Part shown: positions 5,320-40,812 of the stretch, one piece after another | Layout of the letters: the number at the start of each line of letters is the position of its first letter | Position numbering within the stretch: position 1 is the first letter of the stretch | Source of the DNA: Candidatus Altiarchaeota archaeon | GTDB taxonomy: Archaea > Altiarchaeota > Altiarchaeia > IMC4 > QMZM01 | Direction: 5' to 3' | DNA: 43,856 nt | NCBI GenBank assembly: GCA_018897475.1 | Contig: JAHIKS010000093.1 | Span: forward strand, 1-43,856 | Made by a program: the position numbers and the translations under genes | Notes under the pieces: model-generated | Told to the model about the DNA's origin: nothing | Databases searched by the model: none | What the model saw: the letters and a program-made list of their open reading frames with translations, nothing else

Positions 5320-7254
5320 ATGGCATTTATTGAATTCGTTACTCCATTGGCTCTGGCAGGGGTCCTCCTCCTGGCTCCAATCATAATCCTCTATCTACTG
5401 AAACCAAAGCCGAAACACATAAAGCTGCCAACCCTGATGTTCGTAATTTCAAAGAGGAGGAGAAAGAGGTTTGCGTCCTTCTTCAACAGGTTCATAAGGG
5501 ACCCGTTGCTTCTTCTGCAGCTCCTGATAATAATGCTCCTTGTCCTTACGGTGGCGAATCCCTTCATGATGCTGTTTGAGGAAAGGAGCGAAAAGGAGGC
5601 CGTAGTATTTGTCATTGATGCTTCGGCAAGCATGCAGTCAACAGATGTAAGCCCAAGCAGATTCGAAAAGGCCAAGGAGCTTGCGATGCAGGTTCTTAAC
5701 TACCAGAATCCCGAAAGCCCGATAAGTCTTGTTCTGGCCGAAAACGTTCCGATACTCCTTCTGAGGGATGGGAGACAGGAGGATGTCGGTGGAATTCTAT
5801 CCGTCATTGGCGCCGCAGACACCGGCTCCAACATAGGGGATTCGGTTCTCTTCGGAAAGGACCTTCTATCAGGTTCCAGTATGAATAAGAGAATCTATGT
5901 GTTTTCTGATTTCTCGAAGAGCCAGGAATCCGAGCTGGAATTCTCAAGGAAGGTTGCATCAATGGGCAATGTTGCGGTTGAATTTGTAAGGGTCTCAGGC
6001 GAGGGAGAGAATTTAGGCGTAATAGAGATGGGCGTGAAGCGCTTTATCACGGAACCGGAAAAATGCTCCATAACATTCACTGTAAAGAATTTCGGTCAGA
6101 TGGAGCAGGGGCCGTCCGTGGATGTCCTTGTTGATGGCGGGGGTGTGGACACGATAACAAGCTACATCAAAGGGGGGGAGCAGTTCCTATACCACCTCGA
6201 GCCGGACATTACGGAAGATGAGCACACAATAAAGGTCATGATAAATGCAAACGACGCCCTGGCTGTTGATAATACGGCCTTTGCCTTTCTCCCCAAGGTA
6301 AGGAAATACGGGGTTTTGCTGATTACGAAGGAGGGCTCGGGCAACTATCTGAAATATGCCCTTGAAGCATCATCGAATGTTGAACTCGAGGTTTCCATTC
6401 TTCCAATCGTTCCAGAATTTCACGATTTTGATACAGTAATATTTGGAGACCTGAACCCGGAACTTGTTCTTCCCGGAACGTTTAAGAAGCTTGATGAATA
6501 CGCTAGGGGTGGTGGGAGCGTTGTATTCCTGGCCTCATCAGGCCTGGAGGGGATAAACAATGAAAATCTGGGATCCCTTCTTCCGGTCATGCTTATCGGT
6601 CTCAGGGAGGGGGATGAAAGGATAATGGTGGAACAGAACCATGAAATCATATCCAGTGTAACGCTTCAGAATCTAATCACAAAGAGGCATATGCGATGTG
6701 TGGCAAAGAACCAGAGCAGCGTAATAGCAACCATAGATGAGAGCCCCGCACTTGCCTATCATAGCTACGGGAATGGGAAGGTTGCCTTTGTTGGAATAAA
6801 TCCGGATGAGGAATGGAGCAACTTCTACTACAGCTCCTCCCACCCCATATTCTGGTTCCAGTTACTGCAATGGATAAATAGGGGTGAAAATTCACTGGTT
6901 ATCAACAACTTCAAGACGGGAGAGTCGCTGCCTGTAAATGGTAGAATTAATGTTGTAACTCCATCCGGGAAGTCCCTTGATACAGGAAACGTAATACTGG
7001 ACGAGGTCGGAATCTATGGTATAAGATTCGATGATTTGGACGATAAGATAGCCGTTTCCCTTCTCGATGAGTCGGAATCCGCAATCTCCGAATCCATTCC
7101 TAGCCTGAATACAATAAATGATGAGAATTTTGTAATCTCCGGGGAGAAGGTTCAGACAAAGAGGGAGCTCTGGTTCTATATCCTCGCTCTCGGATTGCTC
7201 TTCCTTTTTATTGAAATTCTGGTTTACAAGAGGAGAGGGCTTCTTGAGGAATAG
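5320..7254 (+). CDS. Membrane-anchored von Willebrand factor A (VWA) domain protein, BatA-like N-terminus
   Basis: ORF track 5299..7254; ATG at 5320 (MAFIEF...). Two N-terminal TM helices, the VWA MIDAS motif 'VFVIDASASMQSTD' (DxSxS), and a C-terminal TM helix 'LWFYILALGLLFLFIEILVY'. Confidence 0.6.
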   Translation: MAFIEFVTPLALAGVLLLAPIIILYLLKPKPKHIKLPTLMFVISKRRRKRFASFFNRFIRDPLLLLQLLIIMLLVLTVANPFMMLFEERSEKEAVVFVIDASASMQSTDVSPSRFEKAKELAMQVLNYQNPESPISLVLAENVPILLLRDGRQEDVGGILSVIGAADTGSNIGDSVLFGKDLLSGSSMNKRIYVFSDFSKSQESELEFSRKVASMGNVAVEFVRVSGEGENLGVIEMGVKRFITEPEKCSITFTVKNFGQMEQGPSVDVLVDGGGVDTITSYIKGGEQFLYHLEPDITEDEHTIKVMINANDALAVDNTAFAFLPKVRKYGVLLITKEGSGNYLKYALEASSNVELEVSILPIVPEFHDFDTVIFGDLNPELVLPGTFKKLDEYARGGGSVVFLASSGLEGINNENLGSLLPVMLIGLREGDERIMVEQNHEIISSVTLQNLITKRHMRCVAKNQSSVIATIDESPALAYHSYGNGKVAFVGINPDEEWSNFYYSSSHPIFWFQLLQWINRGENSLVINNFKTGESLPVNGRINVVTPSGKSLDTGNVILDEVGIYGIRFDDLDDKIAVSLLDESESAISESIPSLNTINDENFVISGEKVQTKRELWFYILALGLLFLFIEILVYKRRGLLEE

Positions 7255-11241: not shown

Positions 11242-12021
11242 ATGAAGAATGGTGATTACACGCAAGAGGAAGATGTCATTATCACAAGAATGAGGTCAGA
11301 AGGGAATAAGAACCATGGGATCGCCCTAAGACTTGATAGAAGCCTGGATAGCATAAAGGGAAGGGCTCGATACCTGATAAAGAAGGGATTAATAAAATCA
11401 CGGGGTACAGCTAATGGTAGGTATCCGGAAGGTCGAAAATTGCGCAAATGGACAGATGAAGATATCAAGAAATTTAAGCAATTAAGAGGTTCTGGAAAAC
11501 CGTATGCAGAGATTGCTAAAGAACTTGGTAGAACGGTTGATGCCATACAGCAAACTGCTATTAGATTGATGAGGAAGGATGATACTCTATCCAGCCGAAA
11601 TACTCCAACGGATACAAAAATCTATAATCTTAACTCAGAGTTGGCCAAAATAGGCCTTATGTTGTGGTGGGCCGAAGGAACAAAGGGAGGACACAGTGTT
11701 CAGTTTGTTAATTCCTCTCCAGACATGATTAAAGTCTACATGCGTTTCTTGCGCGAGATTGGTGCAGATATCAGCAGATTGAGAGTAAGGATTAAGGTCA
11801 TGAACTCGTCGCAGGTTGAAGAATGTCAAGGGTACTGGTCAAAGGTAGCAAAAATACCAATAAATAACTTTACGAAACCAATAGTTCGAGGTAAAAAGAT
11901 AGATGATGCCTACAAAGAGCATAAGGGATGTCTCACCATAACATACTTCTCAAGCAATCTCAAGAGGCAGATGGAAGCGAAGATAGATGAGATTAAGGAG
12001 GAGATATTGAAACAAAGTTAG
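11242..12021 (+). CDS. Hypothetical protein: two Myb/SANT-like HTH repeats fused to a LAGLIDADG-like domain
   Basis: Two similar ~45-aa repeats: 'YTQEEDVIITRMRSEG.KNHGIALRLDRSLDSIKGRARYL' and 'WTDEDIKKFKQLRGSGKPYAEIAKELGRTVDAIQQTAIRL'. The C-terminal part, 'LAKIGLMLWWAEGTKGG.SVQFVNSSPDMIKVYMRFLREIG', resembles a single LAGLIDADG motif plus the following beta strands. Confidence 0.45.
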   Translation: MKNGDYTQEEDVIITRMRSEGNKNHGIALRLDRSLDSIKGRARYLIKKGLIKSRGTANGRYPEGRKLRKWTDEDIKKFKQLRGSGKPYAEIAKELGRTVDAIQQTAIRLMRKDDTLSSRNTPTDTKIYNLNSELAKIGLMLWWAEGTKGGHSVQFVNSSPDMIKVYMRFLREIGADISRLRVRIKVMNSSQVEECQGYWSKVAKIPINNFTKPIVRGKKIDDAYKEHKGCLTITYFSSNLKRQMEAKIDEIKEEILKQS

Positions 12022-12024
12022 ACA

Positions 12025-12819
12025 CTACAAAACCATCAAGCTAACCCCAAACCCCACAATCAGCCCCGCGCAGATTGGGGGCAATGCTGGAAGAGCGCAC
12101 TCCTTCTTGTTCAGGATGTAGACGAAGAGAAGAGCTATGCCGATTAATCCCCCGGCTGCTGTAATAATGGCGTTCGTGAAGGAGTAATCTCTCAGCACAG
12201 AGACCGAGAAGATGAGTGGAACTGCCAGGTCTCCTGTTCCAAGACCGAGGAACCTGTCGCCGAAAGGGATTGCGAACATCAGCGGTATTTTATCCTTTGC
12301 TCCCTCAGCCAGGGTTATCATGTGCTTCGTGCCGAATACAGCAACGAGGTCGTAGGCTGAGAGGATTAGGATGAGTATGAGAGCAGGAATGAATGCGATT
12401 GAGGACCCAAAGAGCGCCCCGATGCCCGGAATCGTGAAGATAAGGACTATGTTCATGACTGCCGGGTTCTTGCTCTTCCAGATTGAGAGGATAAAGAGAG
12501 CTGCCGCCAGAAGCAGGCCAATAACGCCGAATAGAAACCAGAGCGTGAAGGAAAGACCGATTAGCAGAAAAAAGAACGACATGATTCTTATGATAAAATA
12601 GAGCCCGAATTTCAGCAGCAGGAGAAGTATTCCTGTCCCGATGAGGATGTAGACGAAGATGGTCAATGAGGTGAGGGGGTTTTCTGGTTCCTCTACCACA
12701 GGGAGAATCTCCCCAGACTCTATCTTCTCTATCAGCTCGTGGCCTATCTGCAGGCCCATCAGCTGAATGGAAACATAAAGAAGGATTATCAGTATCAGAG
12801 GCTCGTATTTCATTCTCAT
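12025..12819 (-). CDS. Presenilin/signal-peptide-peptidase-family (A22) intramembrane aspartyl protease homologue
   Basis: Polytopic membrane ORF with the family triad in order: 'YD' (LSAYDLVAVF), 'GxGD' (GLGTGDLAVP) and 'PAL' (LPALPPI). Its ATG overlaps the mcm stop in an ATGA (12816-12819). Confidence 0.75.
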   Translation of the reverse strand: MRMKYEPLILIILLYVSIQLMGLQIGHELIEKIESGEILPVVEEPENPLTSLTIFVYILIGTGILLLLLKFGLYFIIRIMSFFFLLIGLSFTLWFLFGVIGLLLAAALFILSIWKSKNPAVMNIVLIFTIPGIGALFGSSIAFIPALILILILSAYDLVAVFGTKHMITLAEGAKDKIPLMFAIPFGDRFLGLGTGDLAVPLIFSVSVLRDYSFTNAIITAAGGLIGIALLFVYILNKKECALPALPPICAGLIVGFGVSLMVL

Positions 12820-21510: not shown

Positions 21511-22272
21511 ATGGTCAGGGTAATAGGTGTTCTTTCGGGGAAGGGTGGTGTAGGAAAGACGACTCTCGTTTCTAATCTCGGTGTATCATTGGCTCAAGAG
21601 GGTAAGAATGTCGCCATTGTTGATGCAAACCTTACCGGCGCTAATCTGGGGCTTCATTTTGGTCTGCTTAGTTATCCTGTTTCCATTCACGACGTCATGA
21701 ATGGTGGGGCTCTGATAACGGATGCCATGTACAAGCATCCATCGGGCGTTGATATAATCCCGGCTTCTCTCTCCATTGAACATATAGATACCGAACCAAA
21801 AAACCTGAGGAGCTCGATTGATGAATTTCTTGGCGATAAGGATTTCGTTCTGATTGATGCCGCAACCGGTCTGGACAGGGAGACGTTAAATGCGATAGAC
21901 ATGTCCGATGAGGTACTTATTGTGACTCACCCGGAGCTTCCTACGATTTCAGATGCGTTAAGAACGAAGACCATAGCAGAGAAGTACGGTAAGGACGTTA
22001 TAGGTATCGTTCTTAACAGAGTGAACAGGAAGGACGATCTGAATAAGGATAACGTGTCATCATTCTTTGAGCTTCCCGTTATCGGGGCAATTCCAGACGA
22101 CCCCGTGGTTAGGAAATCCATCGAGGCCAAAAACCCAGTTGTCCTGAGTCATCCAAATCACAGAGTAAGCCAAGAGGTAAGGAGAGTATCAAGCCATATC
22201 TTGGGCAAGAAGTACGTGTCAAAGAACAATGGCGGCCTCATGGACCGGCTCCTGGCTATGTTTAAATGGTGA
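21511..22272 (+). CDS. minD: MinD/ParA-family P-loop ATPase
   Basis: ORF track 21403..22272; ATG at 21511 gives 'MVRVIGVLSGKGGVGKTTLVSNLG' (deviant Walker A). 'VLIDAATGL' is the Walker B region. Confidence 0.85.
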   Translation: MVRVIGVLSGKGGVGKTTLVSNLGVSLAQEGKNVAIVDANLTGANLGLHFGLLSYPVSIHDVMNGGALITDAMYKHPSGVDIIPASLSIEHIDTEPKNLRSSIDEFLGDKDFVLIDAATGLDRETLNAIDMSDEVLIVTHPELPTISDALRTKTIAEKYGKDVIGIVLNRVNRKDDLNKDNVSSFFELPVIGAIPDDPVVRKSIEAKNPVVLSHPNHRVSQEVRRVSSHILGKKYVSKNNGGLMDRLLAMFKW

Positions 22273-22655
22273 TTCAGGTTCTCAACAAGAGCAGGGGTTT
22301 TGTCATAAGCGAATCCTGTGATGTAGCTGATTCTTTCTTCTCCAGGTTCAGGGGTCTGATGCTTTCAGGGCCGAAGGACTTGGTTCTTGTTTCCCCTAGA
22401 GAGGACATAAAGTCCTCGACGATTCACATGCTGTTTATGAGGTTTCCGATAGATGTGATTTGGGTGGATTCAGATATGGTTGTTATAGAAATTAAAAAAG
22501 GAATTAAACCCAACTCCCTTAAAATCTTCAAGCCAAAGAAGCCGGCTAAGTTTGTTGTAGAGCTGGGAATAGGAAAGTTAGGCACTACAGATGTTGGCGA
22601 TAGAATTGAGTTCTCACATCCCGACCCCGCCAAGCCGCTTCATCAGCCGCTTTAG
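22266..22655 (+). CDS. DUF192 (COG1430) family protein
   Basis: 129 aa. 'RFRGLM', 'MLFMRFPIDVIWVD' and 'VVELGIGK...GDRIEF' fit the DUF192 pattern. It contains an in-frame copy of the dispersed 12-nt motif (22577-22588). Its 3' end overlaps the srp54 3' end by 42 nt. Confidence 0.6.
   Translation: MVIQVLNKSRGFVISESCDVADSFFSRFRGLMLSGPKDLVLVSPREDIKSSTIHMLFMRFPIDVIWVDSDMVVIEIKKGIKPNSLKIFKPKKPAKFVVELGIGKLGTTDVGDRIEFSHPDPAKPLHQPL
22577..22588 (-). repeat. Intragenic copy of the dispersed motif (reads GTTAGGCACTAC on +)
   Basis: Exact 12/12. The coding frame is aag TTA GGC ACT ACa, giving K-L-G-T-T. With its flank (22572-22588) it is the exact reverse complement of 40749-40765 (17 nt). Confidence 0.9.
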
Positions 22656-23930
22656 CTTTCTCTCGTCGCCGAACATGCGCATCATCTTCTTCATCTTCTT
22701 GTGATAGTTGATTAGCTCTCTCACATCCTCTGGCTTGGTTCCTGAGCCCGAGGAGATTCTGCCGATGCGCTCTCTTTTGATTAGGGTGGGGTCTTCTCTC
22801 TCGTCGGGAGTCATCGAATCCATTATGTAGATGAACTTCTCAAGCTTTTCTTCTTGCATATCCAGCATGTCCTTGGGAATCTTTGCACCGAATGGCAGCA
22901 TTCCCGCAACCTGTTTCATGGGACCCATCTTCTTCATCTGCTGAATTTGAGAGTAGATGTCGTTCATGTTGAATTTGCCACTCATCATTCTTTCAGCGGC
23001 CTTTTCGTCAAAGTCTACCTCCTTTGCCTTCTCGAGCAGTCCCTCCAGGTCGCCGAAACCGATAAGCCTTGATACAAACCCCTCGGGGTTGAATTCCTCG
23101 AAGTCGTTGATGTGCTCTCCCGTCCCTATGAAATTCACCCCGGAGCCGGTTGCGGAACATGCAGAAATCGCGCCACCGCCCTTTGCCGTGCCGTCGAGCT
23201 TCGTGAGAATTATCCCATCCACCTGGGATGAGTTCTTGAATGCTTCGGCTTCCTTTCCTGCCTGCTGGCCAGTGGTTCCGTCGAGGATTAGAAGAACTCT
23301 CTCGGGCTTTATCTCCTTGTAGATTTTGTTTATGTCCTTCATCAGCTCCTTGTCCAGTTTATGCCGGCCCTCGGAGTCTATCAGAATCAGGCCCTCGTTC
23401 TTGAATTCCTTGATTCCTTCTTTTATTATGTTGAGCGCGTTTTTCTCCCCTGGGTTTCCGTAGAATGGCAGCTTAATCTCTTCGGAGAGCTGCTTCAGCT
23501 GCTCATAGGCCGCAGGCCTGAATGTATCCGCGCAGATAAGTTTTGGGTGCATGCCCTTTTTCTTGAAGTATCGGCCAAGCTTTGCCACGGTGGTTGTCTT
23601 GCCGCTTCCCTGGGTTCCGACGAGGAGGAGCTTCTGTCCATCCTGTATCTCGACCGGTTCTCCCTTCCCAAGTAAATTCACCAGCTCTTCGTAGGTTATC
23701 CGTATAAGGTTCTCCTTTCTGGAGAGCATCCCCGGGGGCTTCTCGAGAAGACCCCTATCCTCAATCCTCTTGGACAGCTCAAAAACCTGCTCTATCTGAA
23801 CGTCAGCCGAGAGGAGGGTCTTCTGAATCTCCTTTGTGTAATTCTTTACCGTCTTCTTGTCAACCACTACCGCTTTCCTCAGGTTCGTGATGGAGCTCTG
23901 CAGGCCCTCCGATAGCTTTTCAAAAACCAT
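22614..23930 (-). CDS. srp54: Signal recognition particle protein SRP54
   Basis: 438 aa. NG domain 'LLVGTQGSGKTTTVAKL', 'DTFRPAAYEQL' and 'LILDGTTGQ', 'TKLDGTAKGG'. Met-rich M domain (MQQMKKMGPM..., MKKMMRMF). Confidence 0.95.
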   Translation of the reverse strand: MVFEKLSEGLQSSITNLRKAVVVDKKTVKNYTKEIQKTLLSADVQIEQVFELSKRIEDRGLLEKPPGMLSRKENLIRITYEELVNLLGKGEPVEIQDGQKLLLVGTQGSGKTTTVAKLGRYFKKKGMHPKLICADTFRPAAYEQLKQLSEEIKLPFYGNPGEKNALNIIKEGIKEFKNEGLILIDSEGRHKLDKELMKDINKIYKEIKPERVLLILDGTTGQQAGKEAEAFKNSSQVDGIILTKLDGTAKGGGAISACSATGSGVNFIGTGEHINDFEEFNPEGFVSRLIGFGDLEGLLEKAKEVDFDEKAAERMMSGKFNMNDIYSQIQQMKKMGPMKQVAGMLPFGAKIPKDMLDMQEEKLEKFIYIMDSMTPDEREDPTLIKRERIGRISSGSGTKPEDVRELINYHKKMKKMMRMFGDERKLKRLMKRLGGVGM

Positions 23931-28184: not shown

Positions 28185-28330
28185 ACTACTCCCACCAAAA
28201 ACCTACGGTTTTTGGAAGGAGCTTCCTGTTTCATTGACGAGACTTGCAGCAGAACCGAAGTCCTGAAGTAGAGGTTTCATCTCCGCAGGCGTTGGTTCGG
28301 GTCGCACCGACCCTACCTCTTTGAGAGCCT
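28150..28330 (-). ncRNA. Candidate omega-RNA (reRNA) scaffold of TnpB
   Basis: In characterised TnpB systems the guide RNA overlaps the tnpB 3' end and the right end of the element. Here that region carries three clean hairpins: GGGTCG-CAC-CGACCC (28299-28313), a 6-bp stem with a UUCG loop on the minus strand (28250-28265), and CCAAAAACC-TAC-GGTTTTTGG (28195-28215). Confidence 0.35.
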
Positions 28331-29393
28331 TATTCAATATGTTTATCGCAGCATTAGGGTCTCTGTCCATTACCAAGCCGCAATGCGGACACCTATGTTC
28401 TCTTACCCAAATTGGCTTGTAGACATATTTTCCACATTCTGGGTTGCTGCAGTTTTGTGTTGTGTTTTTTGGATCTACCTTCGCAAGCGTCCTACCAGCT
28501 CCCTCCGCCTTGTAGGACAGCATCTGAATGAAGGTTGACCATGAAGAGTCTGCTGTATTCTGGGCATTATAAGAGGATTCCATCATCTCCTTTACCGCCA
28601 GGTCCTCTACACCTATAATGTCGTAGTTATTTATGTAGTAGCGTGAAAGCTTGTGCAGGAAGTCCCTTCGCCCATCAGTTATTCTTTCATATACTCTCGC
28701 CGTCTTTATCCTCTGCTTCAGTCTGTTCTTTGAACCCTTCTCTTTCTTTGCCAGGTTTCTCTGCTCTCTGGCAAGTTTCTCTTCCAGTTTAAGAAGATTA
28801 TGAGGGTGTTCTATCCACTCCCCATTGCTGTCGGTCAGGTAGTTCTCTATGTTCAGGTCCAGTCCGATTGCTTTCCCTGTAGTGCCTAATTTTTCTGCTT
28901 TGGTTTCTACAGAAAAGATTGCGAACCACCTCCCTGATTGCTCTCTCTTGATGTGGACTTGCTTTATACTCCCCTTTATCTTCCTGTGCAGTTTTATCGG
29001 AATTGGTCCTATCTTAGACAAACGTAGTCTGTTGTCGATGATTGCGAAACCTGTCTGATTGTAGACAAAGGATTTCATCCGAGTGTATTTCTTGAACCTG
29101 AGTCTGCCGACCTTCCTTCCTTTTGCTTTCAATCCCCTGAGCCCCCGCAGGTTGGAATATAGTTGCCATAAAACATACTGCCTTGTTTTAGAGTGGCTGT
29201 TTTCCAACTCAGGCCACTGCCGGACAAGATAAGGTATCTGGGCCTGTAAATCATATTTTGGAGGAACTTTATCTGATTCCTTCCACTTTCTGAGGAAGTA
29301 GTTGTAGAGTTTCCTGCAACTATCAAGGACTTCCAGCATCCCCATCTCCTGGGCCTTGCTTGGATAGAGCCTAAACCTTAGATTTCTTTGCAT
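28203..29393 (-). CDS. tnpB: TnpB (IS200/IS605-family OrfB) RNA-guided nuclease-type transposon protein
   Basis: 396 aa. N-terminal 'LRFRLYPSKAQE'. RuvC-I 'AIGLDLN'. RuvC-II 'IIGVEDL'. Zinc finger 'CSNPECGKY...HRCPHCG'. RuvC-III 'DRDPNAAINI'. No tnpA (Y1 transposase) is adjacent. Confidence 0.9.
   Translation of the reverse strand: MQRNLRFRLYPSKAQEMGMLEVLDSCRKLYNYFLRKWKESDKVPPKYDLQAQIPYLVRQWPELENSHSKTRQYVLWQLYSNLRGLRGLKAKGRKVGRLRFKKYTRMKSFVYNQTGFAIIDNRLRLSKIGPIPIKLHRKIKGSIKQVHIKREQSGRWFAIFSVETKAEKLGTTGKAIGLDLNIENYLTDSNGEWIEHPHNLLKLEEKLAREQRNLAKKEKGSKNRLKQRIKTARVYERITDGRRDFLHKLSRYYINNYDIIGVEDLAVKEMMESSYNAQNTADSSWSTFIQMLSYKAEGAGRTLAKVDPKNTTQNCSNPECGKYVYKPIWVREHRCPHCGLVMDRDPNAAINILNKALKEVGSVRPEPTPAEMKPLLQDFGSAASLVNETGSSFQKP
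28879..28890 (+). repeat. Near copy (11/12, GTAGTGCCTAAT) of the dispersed motif inside tnpB, antisense
   Basis: On the coding (minus) strand it reads aaa TTA GGC ACT ACa, giving K-L-G-T-T. This is the same frame and codons as the two exact intragenic copies. Confidence 0.7.
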
Positions 29394-32790: not shown

Positions 32791-32935
32791 GTTAGGCACT
32801 ACAATGCATCAGTAAATTGTTGGACATTATGAGAACTAAGAGTAGAAGGAGTTAGGCACTACGCAGAAAGAGAAAATTATATAAAAACATAATAGATGGA
32901 GTGTTGTATGGAGGTATTAAATGGTTAGGCACTAC
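32791..32935 (-). repeat. Cluster of three copies of the dispersed 12-nt motif (GTTAGGCACTAC on +)
   Basis: Exact copies at 32791-32802, 32851-32862 and 32924-32935, in the AT-rich gap between the convergent lonB-like and ssb-like genes. Confidence 0.9.
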
Positions 32936-33344: not shown

Positions 33345-34121
33345 TTAAGTCCCCAATTGAATGGCGCTATTAATCTCCTTTAGAGTAGCAATGGTGGACA
33401 TGGCAGCAAGATAGCTTGTTTTTGGGTTGTTGGGAGATGGAAGGTTCTCCATTTTAATATTAAATTCCCCAAACATCCCAACAACACGAATCTCATGCAC
33501 ATTTCTATTTACATCGGGATCTGCAATTATTCTTAGTTTCGTTTTATCAAATCCCATACCTACCAAAGAGAGGGTGGCGGCAACATTGACGTTTTTTGGG
33601 AATTTTTTGATTCCTTCTCTTGCAGTGCCTTCATAGACTATGGTTTCTTTATCTGTCGTAGTGCCTAACTCTGCCGGGGGCTTCCTTGTTGTCAATTCAA
33701 CCGAGTCGATTCCTTTGGTCTTGGCCGCCTTTATTCCATCCAAACCCGCAATCGCTCCGGACGGAACGTAAATCCTGCGGCCGGTTTTATTAATGAGTTG
33801 CGTTAATTCGTTAAAGAGGGCCTCATCAGCGAGGGCACCAACACTCATTATAAGGATGTCCTTTCCAGAGTCCAGGACCTTAACCCCATAGTCCCTTACT
33901 GCGTCCTGCGACGCGGCCTCCACCACCAAATCTGTGTCTTGAAGCAGGCCTTCAATGGAATCTGCGACGTCTGGTTTCCTACGTAGTTGGGTGGCCAGTT
34001 CTCTGGCCCGTTCAATGTCCTGGTCAAAGACAGCAACCAGGCTGCAATCAACCTCCTCCCTATCAATTGCATCGGCCAGAATTCTGCCGATGTTCCCGCA
34101 CCCCAGGAGACCAATTCTCAT
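33345..34121 (-). CDS. nadX: L-aspartate dehydrogenase
   Basis: ORF track 33345..34169; the likely ATG at 34119-34121 gives 'MRIGLLGCGNIGR' (Rossmann GxGxxG). The C-terminal 'ENLPSPNNPKTSYLAAMSTIATLK' is typical of the family. It contains an antisense copy of the 12-nt motif. Confidence 0.8.
   Translation of the reverse strand: MRIGLLGCGNIGRILADAIDREEVDCSLVAVFDQDIERARELATQLRRKPDVADSIEGLLQDTDLVVEAASQDAVRDYGVKVLDSGKDILIMSVGALADEALFNELTQLINKTGRRIYVPSGAIAGLDGIKAAKTKGIDSVELTTRKPPAELGTTTDKETIVYEGTAREGIKKFPKNVNVAATLSLVGMGFDKTKLRIIADPDVNRNVHEIRVVGMFGEFNIKMENLPSPNNPKTSYLAAMSTIATLKEINSAIQLGT
33658..33669 (+). repeat. Intragenic copy of the dispersed motif (GTAGTGCCTAAC on +, antisense to nadX)
   Basis: Exact 12/12. 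The coding strand reads gag TTA GGC ACT ACg, giving E-L-G-T-T. Extended to 33658-33672 (GTAGTGCCTAACTCT) it is identical to 37072-37086. Confidence 0.9.
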
Positions 34122-34153
34122 TTTCTTACCCTCTCCCCTTTTCTTACCTCCAC

Positions 34154-34969
34154 TCATCTTCTTACCCATAATTGCACCCTGATTAGAATATACAAGAGGA
34201 AAAAGATAAAAGAGAGCGCCAGGACACGTAGTTTGGACACCGGCCGCGCACGAGTCAAACCACCAACATCAAAAAACTTCCCCTTTTCAATATCCTCGAC
34301 ATACCTGAGAATTCCCTTCTTATGTCCTGCACCAACAACAGCCAGGATATTCTTCTCTGGGTTATTCGCCTGGAGATTATGGAGTGAGAGGGCCATATAT
34401 CTATCTCTTTCATCAACCAGCGCGCTGTAAAGGCAGGGCAGCCGTTTTCTAACAACACCCATAATCTTGTCAATATTCTCCTCCTCAAGGATGCTGCTCA
34501 AATCATTCCCGAATAGGTCACCAAAAACCAGGGCATCCTCCTTACCGAGACGCAACATCCTTAGAATCTCCCTAAATGGAATATTGACAAGCCGGCTGAT
34601 GGTAACCTCGATGTCCCTATCAATCAGTGCTATCCCTGCACCGGTTTCCTTGGAGAACTGAGTGGCTGCGAACATGTCTGAGCCCGGCGGAAGCCCATAC
34701 CTCTTTCCAAGGTTCTGCTGAATCAAAGCGAGAATTCCCCCCAGGAATACAAGAAACGACCCCCCCCTCACCGCCTCGGAGAGGGTGCTACCTGCGCTTT
34801 TCTGTGCCCCGCCCTGGTAAAAATCGGCACCCTGCGATTCCATTACACGGAATCTCTTCTCACACAGCTCAAGAGCAACGATATCCGGCCTCTCATCAAA
34901 GACGGCCTCCCTAACGCCCTCAACACTCCTCTCCAGAATGTGCCCCGTCCCGACGATTTTTATATTCAT
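34154..34969 (-). CDS. TraB/PrgY-family protein
   Basis: 'IKIVGTGHILERSVEGV', 'PDIVALELCEKR', 'IALIDRDIEVT' and 'LAVVGAGHKKGI', plus a C-terminal TM helix, match the TraB family pattern. Confidence 0.7.
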   Translation of the reverse strand: MNIKIVGTGHILERSVEGVREAVFDERPDIVALELCEKRFRVMESQGADFYQGGAQKSAGSTLSEAVRGGSFLVFLGGILALIQQNLGKRYGLPPGSDMFAATQFSKETGAGIALIDRDIEVTISRLVNIPFREILRMLRLGKEDALVFGDLFGNDLSSILEEENIDKIMGVVRKRLPCLYSALVDERDRYMALSLHNLQANNPEKNILAVVGAGHKKGILRYVEDIEKGKFFDVGGLTRARPVSKLRVLALSFIFFLLYILIRVQLWVRR

Positions 34970-37044: not shown

Positions 37045-37182
37045 GTAGTGCCTAACCCTTGGTGCTGTTTTGTAGTGCCTAACTCTATGGGGGCGTAGTG
37101 CCTAACTTTCTAGAACCGCAGTGCCTAACTCTATTGTGCTGTGGCGTAGTGCCTAACTTACCCCCCAAACGTAGTGCCTAAC
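37045..37182 (+). repeat. Array of six spaced copies of the 12-nt motif GTAGTGCCTAAC
   Basis: Copies at 37045-37056, 37072-37083, 37095-37106, 37118-37129 (GCAGTGCCTAAC), 37146-37157 and 37171-37182. Spacers are 15, 11, 11, 16 and 13 nt. The array occupies the complete cutA/tsaC convergent gap. Confidence 0.95.
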
Positions 37183-39492: not shown

Positions 39493-40752
39493 ATGTTTAT
39501 CGGTTTGGATGATACGGACTCCCTGAAGGGGGGATGCACTACATACTTAGCAGCGCTGCTATGCAGGGAGCTGGGCACTACAAAAAACCCGAAACTAATC
39601 CGGCTCAATCCGAACATCCCTTACAAGACAAGGGGCAACGGCGCAGTCGCAATTGAGGTGGATGGAAACCCCGCTAGAATAAAGGAAGTGGCCCTGAATC
39701 TGGTCAAGGAACACGCCCACACCAAGGACAAGAGAACAAACCCCGGCGTGGCATTCATTGATAATCTAAATTCAAAAAATAAAAAGAGCCTCAATGAATT
39801 CTACCAGAGAGCGGTCTCGGAACTCGTCACAATCGAGGAAGCCGAGGAGACCGCAGCCAAAACCAATGCAGAAATTCACAAATTCAACAACGGTAGAGGC
39901 ATCATCGGCGCGCTGGCAGCAATTGGTGCGGGTCTCGATGACAGGACCTATGAGCTAATTGCCTACAGGAAGAAGGAGAACTGTGGAAAGCCCAAAGGGA
40001 TAGATGAGGATTCTGTATTTGCGATGCACGAACGGCTCCACCCTCAGGTATTCAATTCCATAGACCCAGAGACAGGACAGATTCTCATAACCCCGCACGG
40101 CTACGACCCGGTCTTCTGCGGAATCAGGGGCGAGTCTCCGGAGGCAGTTCTGGAGGCATGGAAGTCCATAAAACCGCTGGAAGAGATAGAATTCATCCAA
40201 ATATTCGAGACAAACCAGGGGACCGACGCCCACCTCAGGGAGAATAAAATATCCGAGCTAAAGCCCTATGACTGTGCCATCCTGGAAGGCGCCGTTGCCA
40301 GCAACTCAAGAACAATCGAGGGCGGCCACGTTTTCTTTTCAATTGCTGACGGCACAGGAGAGATTGACTGCGCGGCCTACGAGCCAACAGGGAGATTCAG
40401 GGAGATAACAAGGAAACTATTAACTGGGGACAGAATTCGCGCCCACGGAGGAATTGGAAGATATATCAATACCCTAAACCTTGAAAAGATTGAAATTTTA
40501 GAATTGATTAAGGCACATAAAAAAGAATCTCCTGCCTGCTGCGGCCGGACTATGACATCAGCAGGAAAAGACAAGGGCTTCAAGTGCAGGAAGTGCGGCA
40601 AGAGAAAGGATTCGAACTCTGCAGTAATCCAGGAAATTCCCAGAGGGCTGAAAGACGGATTTTATGAGGCGCCCCCAAGGGCGATGAGGCACCTGAGCAA
40701 GCCGATAATAAGGGCGCAGCAGCGAATTTCAACAGACAAAACCGATATGTAG
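39493..40752 (+). CDS. tiaS: tRNA(Ile2) 2-agmatinylcytidine synthetase TiaS
   Basis: 'MFIGLDDTDSLKGGCTTYLAA' and 'LIRLNPNIPYKTRGNGAVAI' form the TiaS N-terminal hallmark. C-terminal OB region and zinc ribbon 'CCGRTMTSAGKDKGFKCRKCG'. Confidence 0.85.
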   Translation: MFIGLDDTDSLKGGCTTYLAALLCRELGTTKNPKLIRLNPNIPYKTRGNGAVAIEVDGNPARIKEVALNLVKEHAHTKDKRTNPGVAFIDNLNSKNKKSLNEFYQRAVSELVTIEEAEETAAKTNAEIHKFNNGRGIIGALAAIGAGLDDRTYELIAYRKKENCGKPKGIDEDSVFAMHERLHPQVFNSIDPETGQILITPHGYDPVFCGIRGESPEAVLEAWKSIKPLEEIEFIQIFETNQGTDAHLRENKISELKPYDCAILEGAVASNSRTIEGGHVFFSIADGTGEIDCAAYEPTGRFREITRKLLTGDRIRAHGGIGRYINTLNLEKIEILELIKAHKKESPACCGRTMTSAGKDKGFKCRKCGKRKDSNSAVIQEIPRGLKDGFYEAPPRAMRHLSKPIIRAQQRISTDKTDM

Positions 40753-40760
40753 TGCCTAAC
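40749..40760 (+). repeat. Solitary copy of the 12-nt motif overlapping the tiaS stop codon
   Basis: GTAGTGCCTAAC exact. Its internal TAG (40750-40752) is the tiaS stop codon. Confidence 0.9.
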
Positions 40761-40812
40761 TTTCCCCCAACCTATTTAATCCTCCATTCCTAATTCTATT
40801 ACACTCCCAGAG

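Follow-up and report, generated by a model that had tools for sequence, protein, structure and literature searches.

A 12-nucleotide (nt) word, GTAGTGCCTAAC, that lies within the DUF192 gene of a Candidatus Altiarchaeota archaeon is conserved as double-stranded DNA: the DNA imposes the peptide LGTT on the protein at this place, including the rare leucine codon TTA, and not the reverse. The copy in DUF192 is one instance of a dispersed DNA word that is probably the binding box of a small basic protein of ~53 amino acids (aa). The stretch analysed, referred to here as the window, comprises the 43,856 nt of contig JAHIKS010000093.1 (assembly GCA_018897475.1) and is contig C27 of the genome (G000; 1.41 Mb in 151 contigs, 47.5% G+C). 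The focal copy, its host gene and the gene that faces it are:

22577..22588, minus strand: focal copy of the word GTAGTGCCTAAC; the coding (+) strand reads GTTAGGCACTAC and encodes (K)LGTT of DUF192
22266..22655, plus strand: DUF192 host gene, 129 aa, Pfam PF02643; the focal copy lies 67 nt ahead of the 3' end of the gene
22614..23930, minus strand: SRP54 (ffh) gene, Pfam SRP54 domains, convergent with DUF192

The original prediction held that positions 22572-22588 (GGAAAGTTAGGCACTAC on the + strand) are the perfect reverse complement of positions 40749-40765 (GTAGTGCCTAACTTTCC) and encode K-L-G-T-T in frame. Both statements are borne out: the identity grows to 18 nt with a flanking T (22572-22589), and GGA AAG TTA GGC ACT ACA reads G-K-L-G-T-T in the peptide context ...G-I-G-K-L-G-T-T-D-V-G-D... 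of the open reading frame (ORF) 22266-22655. The length of this match is unremarkable. Since the consensus of the flanks is biased and 166 of 2415 pairs of copies in G000 (7%) have at least 17 nt in common, it carries no extra meaning. The 3' ends of DUF192 and SRP54 overlap by 42 nt (window 22614-22655), and the focal copy, which is sense to SRP54, starts 25 nt beyond the SRP54 stop codon, as judged from coordinates. Because this convergent junction has no spacer, a copy placed at it must sit in coding DNA; it occupies the same kind of place as the intergenic copies (see below), minus the spacer. (The last 13 C-terminal residues of this DUF192 protein are absent from most orthologues, which stop earlier.)

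Exact copies of the word number 71 in G000 against 0.17 expected, a more than 400-fold excess; they occur at a density of 1 per 20 kb and are split 30/41 between the strands. Sequences with one mismatch number 18 against 6 expected, those with two 51 against 99, and those with three 510 against 995. Copies that cluster are direct repeats. As a family the copies have the consensus T-GTAGTGCCTAAC-T-(T/C)-T. The information content of the flanks is zero beyond +/-3 nt, so that no inverted repeat is conserved; what is conserved is the 12-14-nt core, without the flanks that a longer duplex would need. According to crude gene calling, which gave 1469 ORFs over 86% of the genome, 40 of the exact copies are intergenic, 7 run across the end of a gene and 24 are intragenic.

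Inside genes the word is met mainly in one reading frame. TAG or TAA closes three of its six frames (two sense, one antisense), and the 24 intragenic copies are divided over the three open frames as 19 LGTT, 4 VRHY and 1 VVPN. Near-matches that arise by chance (3-4 mismatches) fall more often into the VRHY and VVPN frames, so that LGTT is preferred beyond what stop codons alone would bring about, probably because it is the mildest of the three peptides. The suggestion that the element may be tolerated in a single frame thus finds support. LGTT tetrapeptides occur 29 times in G000 against 6.7 expected. That all of them might be spelt TTA-GGC-ACT-AC is true for 20 of the 29 (69%) and fails for the remaining nine, whose number matches the background expectation; codon usage gives a chance of 0.0034 per LGTT for this spelling, TTA making up 6.7% of leucine codons. 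(On contig C13, at 651-686, two exact copies 24 nt apart lie in one ORF, 127-996, and both read LGTT, within a threonine-rich stretch (...GLGTTTVRELGTTALPTT...); this pair looks like a miniature array that is tolerated in coding DNA.)

The DUF192 gene is intact and syntenic in all relatives, and its orthologues were compared in 30 related genomes. The site varies: LGTT, IGNS, LGET, IGNT, IDEV, MGET, IGKT, IKNT, LPPA and others are found, a pattern of the form (L/I)-G-x-T in which only L or I, often G, and a final T are common. LGTT itself is present in 5 of the 30, in G000, G001 and G002 (same genus), G006 (another genus) and G036 (another family), and all five spell it TTA GGC ACT AC, with adjacent codons varying synonymously. 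An ancestral LGTT with ordinary synonymous variation in relatives had been named beforehand as the finding that would speak against the prediction; the opposite is seen, in that LGTT is not ancestral in DUF192 and the exact codons recur wherever it occurs. In a maximum-likelihood tree of DUF192, G000, G001 and G002 form a clade (support 100/99), G036 is sister (95/89) to two genomes that do not have the word at this site, and G006 stands apart in a poorly resolved region. The separation of the G000 clade from G036 implies that the word arose at the DUF192 site at least two times, and probably three.

Comparison across genomes shows the word outlasting its surroundings. Among 41 relatives of the same order the exact word is found in 33, in 1 to 71 copies (G000 has the most), and a reversed control word gives 0-1 matches per genome. 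For the sister genome, G002, 30 copies were examined, 17 of which have an alignment with G000 that spans the word. In 14 of these 17 the word is identical, with the surrounding 500 nt only 75-92% identical; the neutral expectation for a 12-mer staying identical is roughly 7-28%. A tandem array behind the cutA gene has six units in G000 and three in G002, with exact 12-mers and spacers that are only loosely alike, and behind an Ssb-like gene 3-4 copies are kept in both genomes, the DNA between them being unrelated. It is the combination of a fixed spelling of LGTT, a variable orthologue site and copies that outlast diverged flanks that establishes conservation of the word as DNA. Farther afield, a collection of loci selected for two exact copies 8-38 nt apart yielded such tandem pairs in Altiarchaeota, Micrarchaeota, Iainarchaeum, Woesearchaeota and metagenome-assembled genomes (MAGs) labelled Methanosarcinales; on viral contigs neither such a pair nor a relative of the small protein described below is present.

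The placement of copies is far from uniform. Of the 27 intergenic regions of G000 with a copy, 10 are convergent and 1 is divergent, although convergent regions make up only 14.6% of the intergenic bases and divergent regions, which hold only promoters, 21%. Copies lie in the sense direction just past several stop codons, but at 3' ends generally the orientation is mixed, and copies at promoters likewise occur in both orientations relative to the downstream gene. Toxin-antitoxin pairs, nucleotidyltransferase/HEPN pairs, secreted-protein genes and a Fic/Doc-type gene (the last recognised from reading its translation) are flanked by copies, and on contigs C75 and C43 copies separate consecutive accessory genes. 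Members of a tnpB-type transposon gene family have two copies just upstream of a TATA-like box, reverse to the gene; the tnpB members of the family also have one intragenic copy that encodes LGTT before the RuvC-I motif, always with TTA. (A conserved promoter block made up of two words, TATAAT/TATAAA and CACTTTTCCGGTGCTCTCGCACAA is found on C9, C51, C86, C101, C142, C69, C82 and C124; it precedes at least two kinds of gene, tnpB and an unrelated ORF starting MQLTLRG....) An apparent antisense bias of intergenic copies between genes of the same direction (24 vs 6) was not used, because about ten of the 24 represent one transposon promoter and arrays are counted repeatedly.

The candidate reader of the word is the product of a small basic gene, which in G000 lies outside the window (C101:15860-16018, minus strand; ~53 aa) beside an aIF5A-like gene, the latter recognised from its translation. 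An 11/12 copy of the word is situated 46 nt upstream and is followed directly by TTTTATAC. Ten of 30 Altiarchaeota relatives have the word, exact or with one mismatch, 12-51 nt upstream of the start of the small gene, and several of these copies directly abut a TTTTATA-type box. A gene of 49-61 aa, with the consensus MxFxRxKxxKGxxYYYLVxSxRxxGxVxQxxLxYLG, stands directly downstream of the pair of words in four MAGs (Methanosarcinales-labelled, Micrarchaeota and unclassified archaeal). Another order has an TTTATATA-type (TATA) box upstream of the small gene with 3-5 direct copies of GTAGTGCCTAA[N] around it, one of them 14-21 nt from the start codon, and this holds with A, T or G as the 12th base. 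The word is thus found at the TATA box of the small protein's own gene in three distant archaeal lineages, in which the rest of the sequence has diverged. Genomes with only one or two exact copies in total have them all at the small gene (G041, 2/2; G090, 2/2; G030, 1/1, in reverse orientation; G071, 1/1).

Presence of the gene also tracks abundance of the word. In an order of Micrarchaeota the stand-alone gene is present in 8 of 9 genomes with at least two copies, against 2 of 59 with at most one; for word and small gene in the Altiarchaeota relatives the corresponding co-occurrence is 26/30 vs 4/11. (Related genomes are not independent samples in these counts; the pattern recurs in three distant lineages.) That the small protein has the word as its operator box is well supported, though inferred. 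The location of copies next to and around the TATA box of its own gene suggests that the small protein most likely represses its own promoter. In this it would resemble autoregulated archaeal repressors, which have operator boxes around the TATA box of their own gene; at the small gene several direct copies are so placed, some of them reaching to ~20 nt from its start codon. It would differ from them in that several lineages have tens of copies, most of them away from promoters, namely at 3' ends, within coding DNA or in arrays, and in that the small protein has no recognised DNA-binding fold or Pfam family.

The small-protein family has at least 758 members, all named "hypothetical protein" in their sources save two labelled BamE in one source, and scans of family members against Pfam, NCBIfam and PHROGs assign them to no family. 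The protein has 17 lysine or arginine residues in 53. A confident AlphaFold2 model (pLDDT 91.7) predicts three long antiparallel beta-strands and a C-terminal helix. A related domain constitutes the N-terminus of a multi-copy IS1634-family transposase in G022 and of two Fic-domain proteins of G000 (C1:1441-2416 and C122:8543-9520), which begin MxYLxxKxINGxxYxYLxKSxRLPDG...; the C1 Fic gene has an exact copy of the word one base after its stop codon. The N-terminal position of a transposase is usually the part that binds the ends of the element.

These features can be accommodated in the following proposal. The small protein would be a free-standing relative of the domain found at the N-terminus of IS1634-family transposases and certain Fic proteins, and its ancestral operator box would have multiplied in some lineages, so as to lie now upstream of the TATA boxes of tnpB-type genes, inside those genes, beside toxin-antitoxin and accessory genes and, above all, at convergent 3' ends. 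New copies seem to have three sources: point substitution where a near-match already stands at a tolerant site, as in DUF192; tandem duplication, which yields the arrays; and carriage on DNA that is inserted. More speculatively, the bound protein might act at convergent ends as a roadblock or insulator between converging transcripts, or as an anchor that organises the chromosome. Avoidance of divergent promoters, preference for convergent 3' ends and independence of orientation would fit a binding site on double-stranded DNA that is harmful in promoters and useful, or merely tolerated, behind genes; this, like any function of the dispersed copies, is speculative.

Several observations weigh against this proposal. 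The link between protein and box is drawn only from adjacency and co-occurrence. The fold of the small protein offers no independent sign of DNA binding, because neither Foldseek against the Protein Data Bank (PDB) nor a profile search of PDB sequences gave a significant match. Three word-rich genomes do not have the stand-alone gene (G039 with 33 copies, G036 with 10 and G147 with 15, all of them incomplete MAGs), and G022 and G032 have the gene and not the exact word. Exact pairs also turn up in two bacterial genomes that do not have the small protein, an Aeromicrobium MAG (L040:3450-3492) and a member of the Leptolyngbyaceae (L071:6243-6290), where the chance expectation of such pairs is ~0.13 in the whole collection. 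That 24 of the 71 copies are intragenic, and many others at 3' ends, does not conform to sites of a classical regulator, and ~17 of the 71 stem from one tnpB transposon family and are not independent events. Any function of an individual copy, that in DUF192 included, is therefore putative, and some copies may be neutral passengers. (The Aeromicrobium pair represents the only two copies in 5 Mb and lies between acetyltransferase-like and ctaB-like ORFs.)

What else could account for the word? Chance combined with codon bias, by which LGTT would be a common peptide written in codons that the genome prefers, has the ancestral L-G of the DUF192 position on its side, but it is refuted and left with practically no probability by the rarity of TTA, by the frequency of the LGTT spelling (69% observed vs 0.34% expected) and by the number of exact copies. 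The original prediction raised trans-antisense pairing, in which a transcript with GUAGUGCCUAACUUUCC, for example from the 3' end of tiaS, would anneal to the DUF192 messenger RNA. Perfect complementarity over 17-18 nt and the sense copies that follow several stop codons are what such a mechanism would call for, but it is not supported and must be considered highly improbable: the word is present on both strands (30/41), so that the 17-nt duplex is not specific to DUF192; the flanks that would lengthen it are not conserved in orthologues; orientation is mixed at promoters and at 3' ends; and an Rfam scan of the window matched one tRNA and nothing else. An uptake or recombination signal spread by molecular drive, preferred by machinery of DNA uptake, repair or gene conversion, with no copy being locally functional, is a more serious contender, though an unlikely one. 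Haemophilus uptake signal sequences (USS; 9-mer core) and Neisseria DNA uptake sequences (DUS; 12 nt) are present at ~1 per kb, with frequent inverted pairs serving as terminators. The likeness is considerable: a short exact word in hundreds-fold excess, with many more exact copies than near-misses, on both strands, confined in genes to tolerant frames and peptides, enriched at 3' ends and avoiding divergent promoters, common to related species and of convergent origin at the same site of DUF192. Identity of the word across phyla would fit a common currency for exchanged DNA; USS and DUS, on the other hand, are dialects at the level of genus or family. The density of the word is ~20x below theirs, its copies form direct tandem arrays instead of inverted terminator pairs, the candidate reader is a small cytoplasmic basic protein and not a pilin, and several genomes hold copies only at one small gene, which pure drive does not predict. 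We know of no competence system in these archaea, whose competence genes were not searched for here.

A recombination or insertion site that borders mobile gene cassettes, in the manner of integrons or transposon ends, would make the DUF192 copy a potential or former landing site, and this too is rather unlikely. It draws on copies between accessory genes and around toxin-antitoxin pairs, on the replacement of DNA between conserved copies, and on four insertions or deletions between G000 and G002 with a border at or close to the word (892 nt, 736 nt, 390 nt, and ~820 vs 190 nt). The first bases of the reverse complement GTTAGGCACTAC, GTTAGGC, conform to the integron core-site consensus GTTRRRY, although a likeness of 7 nt is weak by itself. 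On C111 a tyrosine recombinase gene stands ~650 nt away from two copies of the word; a paralogous second one, on C18, has no word nearby. (C111:1-2464 has the appearance of an integrated element: a gene of unknown kind, two words 26 nt apart, a small winged-helix-like gene and, on the opposite strand, the recombinase of 418 aa.) Breakpoints are only weakly enriched at the word, with 3 of 37 alignment ends within 15 nt of it, and word sites are spanned by alignment in 13 of 25 cases vs ~17 of 25 control positions. The empty sites of the 892-nt and 736-nt differences do not contain the word, which in an insert may occupy one end or the other, without constant polarity; in attC sites an R''-L''/L'-R' imperfect inverted repeat, 55-140 nt long, folds up as single-stranded DNA, and the word has no conserved hairpin, imperfect inverted repeat or second arm of this type (array periods are 23-28 nt); and most copies, 14 of 17, are stable in place, with DUF192 intact and syntenic. 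No integron integrase, a tyrosine recombinase with the extra IntI domain, was identified, the IntI-specific domain of the C111 and C18 recombinases not having been looked at. Archaeal integrons have been reported to be enriched in Asgardarchaeota, with ordinary attC sites, and are not reported for Altiarchaeota (PMC9668308); together with the missing attC structure, this led to the integron being set aside as the principal explanation. A related and comparably improbable idea makes the word an address common to gene exchange across archaeal phyla (Altiarchaeota, several DPANN lineages and Methanosarcinales-labelled MAGs): the protein would mark copies or recruit recombination to them, cassettes would move at copies, and intragenic copies would be selected or tolerated docking points. 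Repetitive extragenic palindromic (REP) sequences with their REP-associated tyrosine transposases (RAYT) are likewise short dispersed repeats, lying mainly behind genes, beginning with GTAG and associated with a transposase-related protein. They were rejected since no hairpin follows the GTAG head and contig C103, which holds a Y1_Tnp gene (C103:145-504), has no word at up to one mismatch; moreover, the RAYT protein is IS200-like (Y1) and comes from a single-copy gene with the repeats on its flanks, whereas the one associated here has 53 aa, resembles an IS1634 N-terminus and has no catalytic part, and about a third of the copies of the word are inside genes.

Two of the insertions or deletions between G000 and G002 are clean. 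The 892-nt segment, with a secreted-protein gene, occupies L170:1497-2388 of G002 and corresponds to G000 C49:3232; the 736-nt segment, with a nucleotidyltransferase/HEPN pair, occupies L184:790-1525 of G002 and corresponds to G000 C9:6872-6889. Each has the word at one end.

The window itself contains 14 matches to the core GTAGTGCCTAAC at up to one mismatch, against 0.03 expected from shuffles. Those other than the focal copy include:

40749..40760, plus strand: copy holding the tiaS stop codon (an internal TAG); partner in the 17-nt match
37045..37182, plus strand: tandem array of 6 copies (5 exact, 1 GCAGTGCCTAAC) with a period of 23-28 nt, between convergent cutA and tsaC/yrdC
32791..32935, minus strand: 3 exact copies behind the Ssb-like OB-fold gene, at distances of 60 and 73 nt from one another
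33658..33669, plus strand: exact copy inside the aspartate dehydrogenase gene (33345-34169, minus strand); reads LGTT and is kept in G002
28879..28890, plus strand: 11/12 copy GTAGTGCCTAAT inside tnpB (28203-29393, minus strand); LGTT just ahead of the RuvC-I GxDLG motif
12017..12028, minus strand: 11/12 copy GTAGTGTCTAAC over the abutting 3' ends of convergent ORFs 11242-12021 (plus strand) and 12025-12819 (minus strand)

The LGTT of tnpB at 28879..28890 occupies the same position in the other tnpB paralogues of G000. The strand assignments made earlier for the window are correct: its intragenic copies (exact at 22577 and 33658, 11/12 at 28879) read GTTAGGCACTAC on the coding strand, and behind cutA, tiaS and the Ssb-like gene the copies run sense to the gene that they follow. 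Because they lie between convergent genes, however, the copies behind cutA and the Ssb-like gene are at the same time antisense to their other neighbour. A reading of the copies spaced 60-73 nt apart as similar to clustered regularly interspaced short palindromic repeats (CRISPR) was discarded, nothing beyond the 12-mer being repeated.

A second motif, GG(G/T)GAATTC, is often found 4-16 nt from the word, on either side (C16:134-200, C43:4995-5023, C75:1237-1270 and 6741-6775, C94:1365-1400, C97:4790-4820, C112:906-1010), and the 4.3 kb of non-coding sequence that flanks the word contain 20 occurrences of GAATTC, where genome frequency predicts ~5.6. The motif could represent a partner site, or else some coding feature of adjacent genes.

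A literature search found no paper with either strand of the 12-mer. New here are the evidence from codons and orthologues that the DNA drives the peptide, the convergent origin of the word in DUF192 and its conservation in the sister genome, as well as the restriction of the word to the small gene in genomes with few copies and the co-occurrence counts in three lineages. Archaeal phyla with hardly any other non-coding sequence in common have the word in identical form. The word presents a clean case of selection on a DNA word that overrides codon choice and shapes a housekeeping protein repeatedly at one site, and it brings a warning for annotation, in that LGTT in such genomes is the mark of a DNA element and not a protein motif. 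The small protein is a concrete candidate reader for which no relative of solved structure exists. If it binds the word, it would represent a new small DNA-binding fold and, in poorly known archaea, a new genome-wide system of binding sites linked to the control of tnpB transposons and accessory genes.

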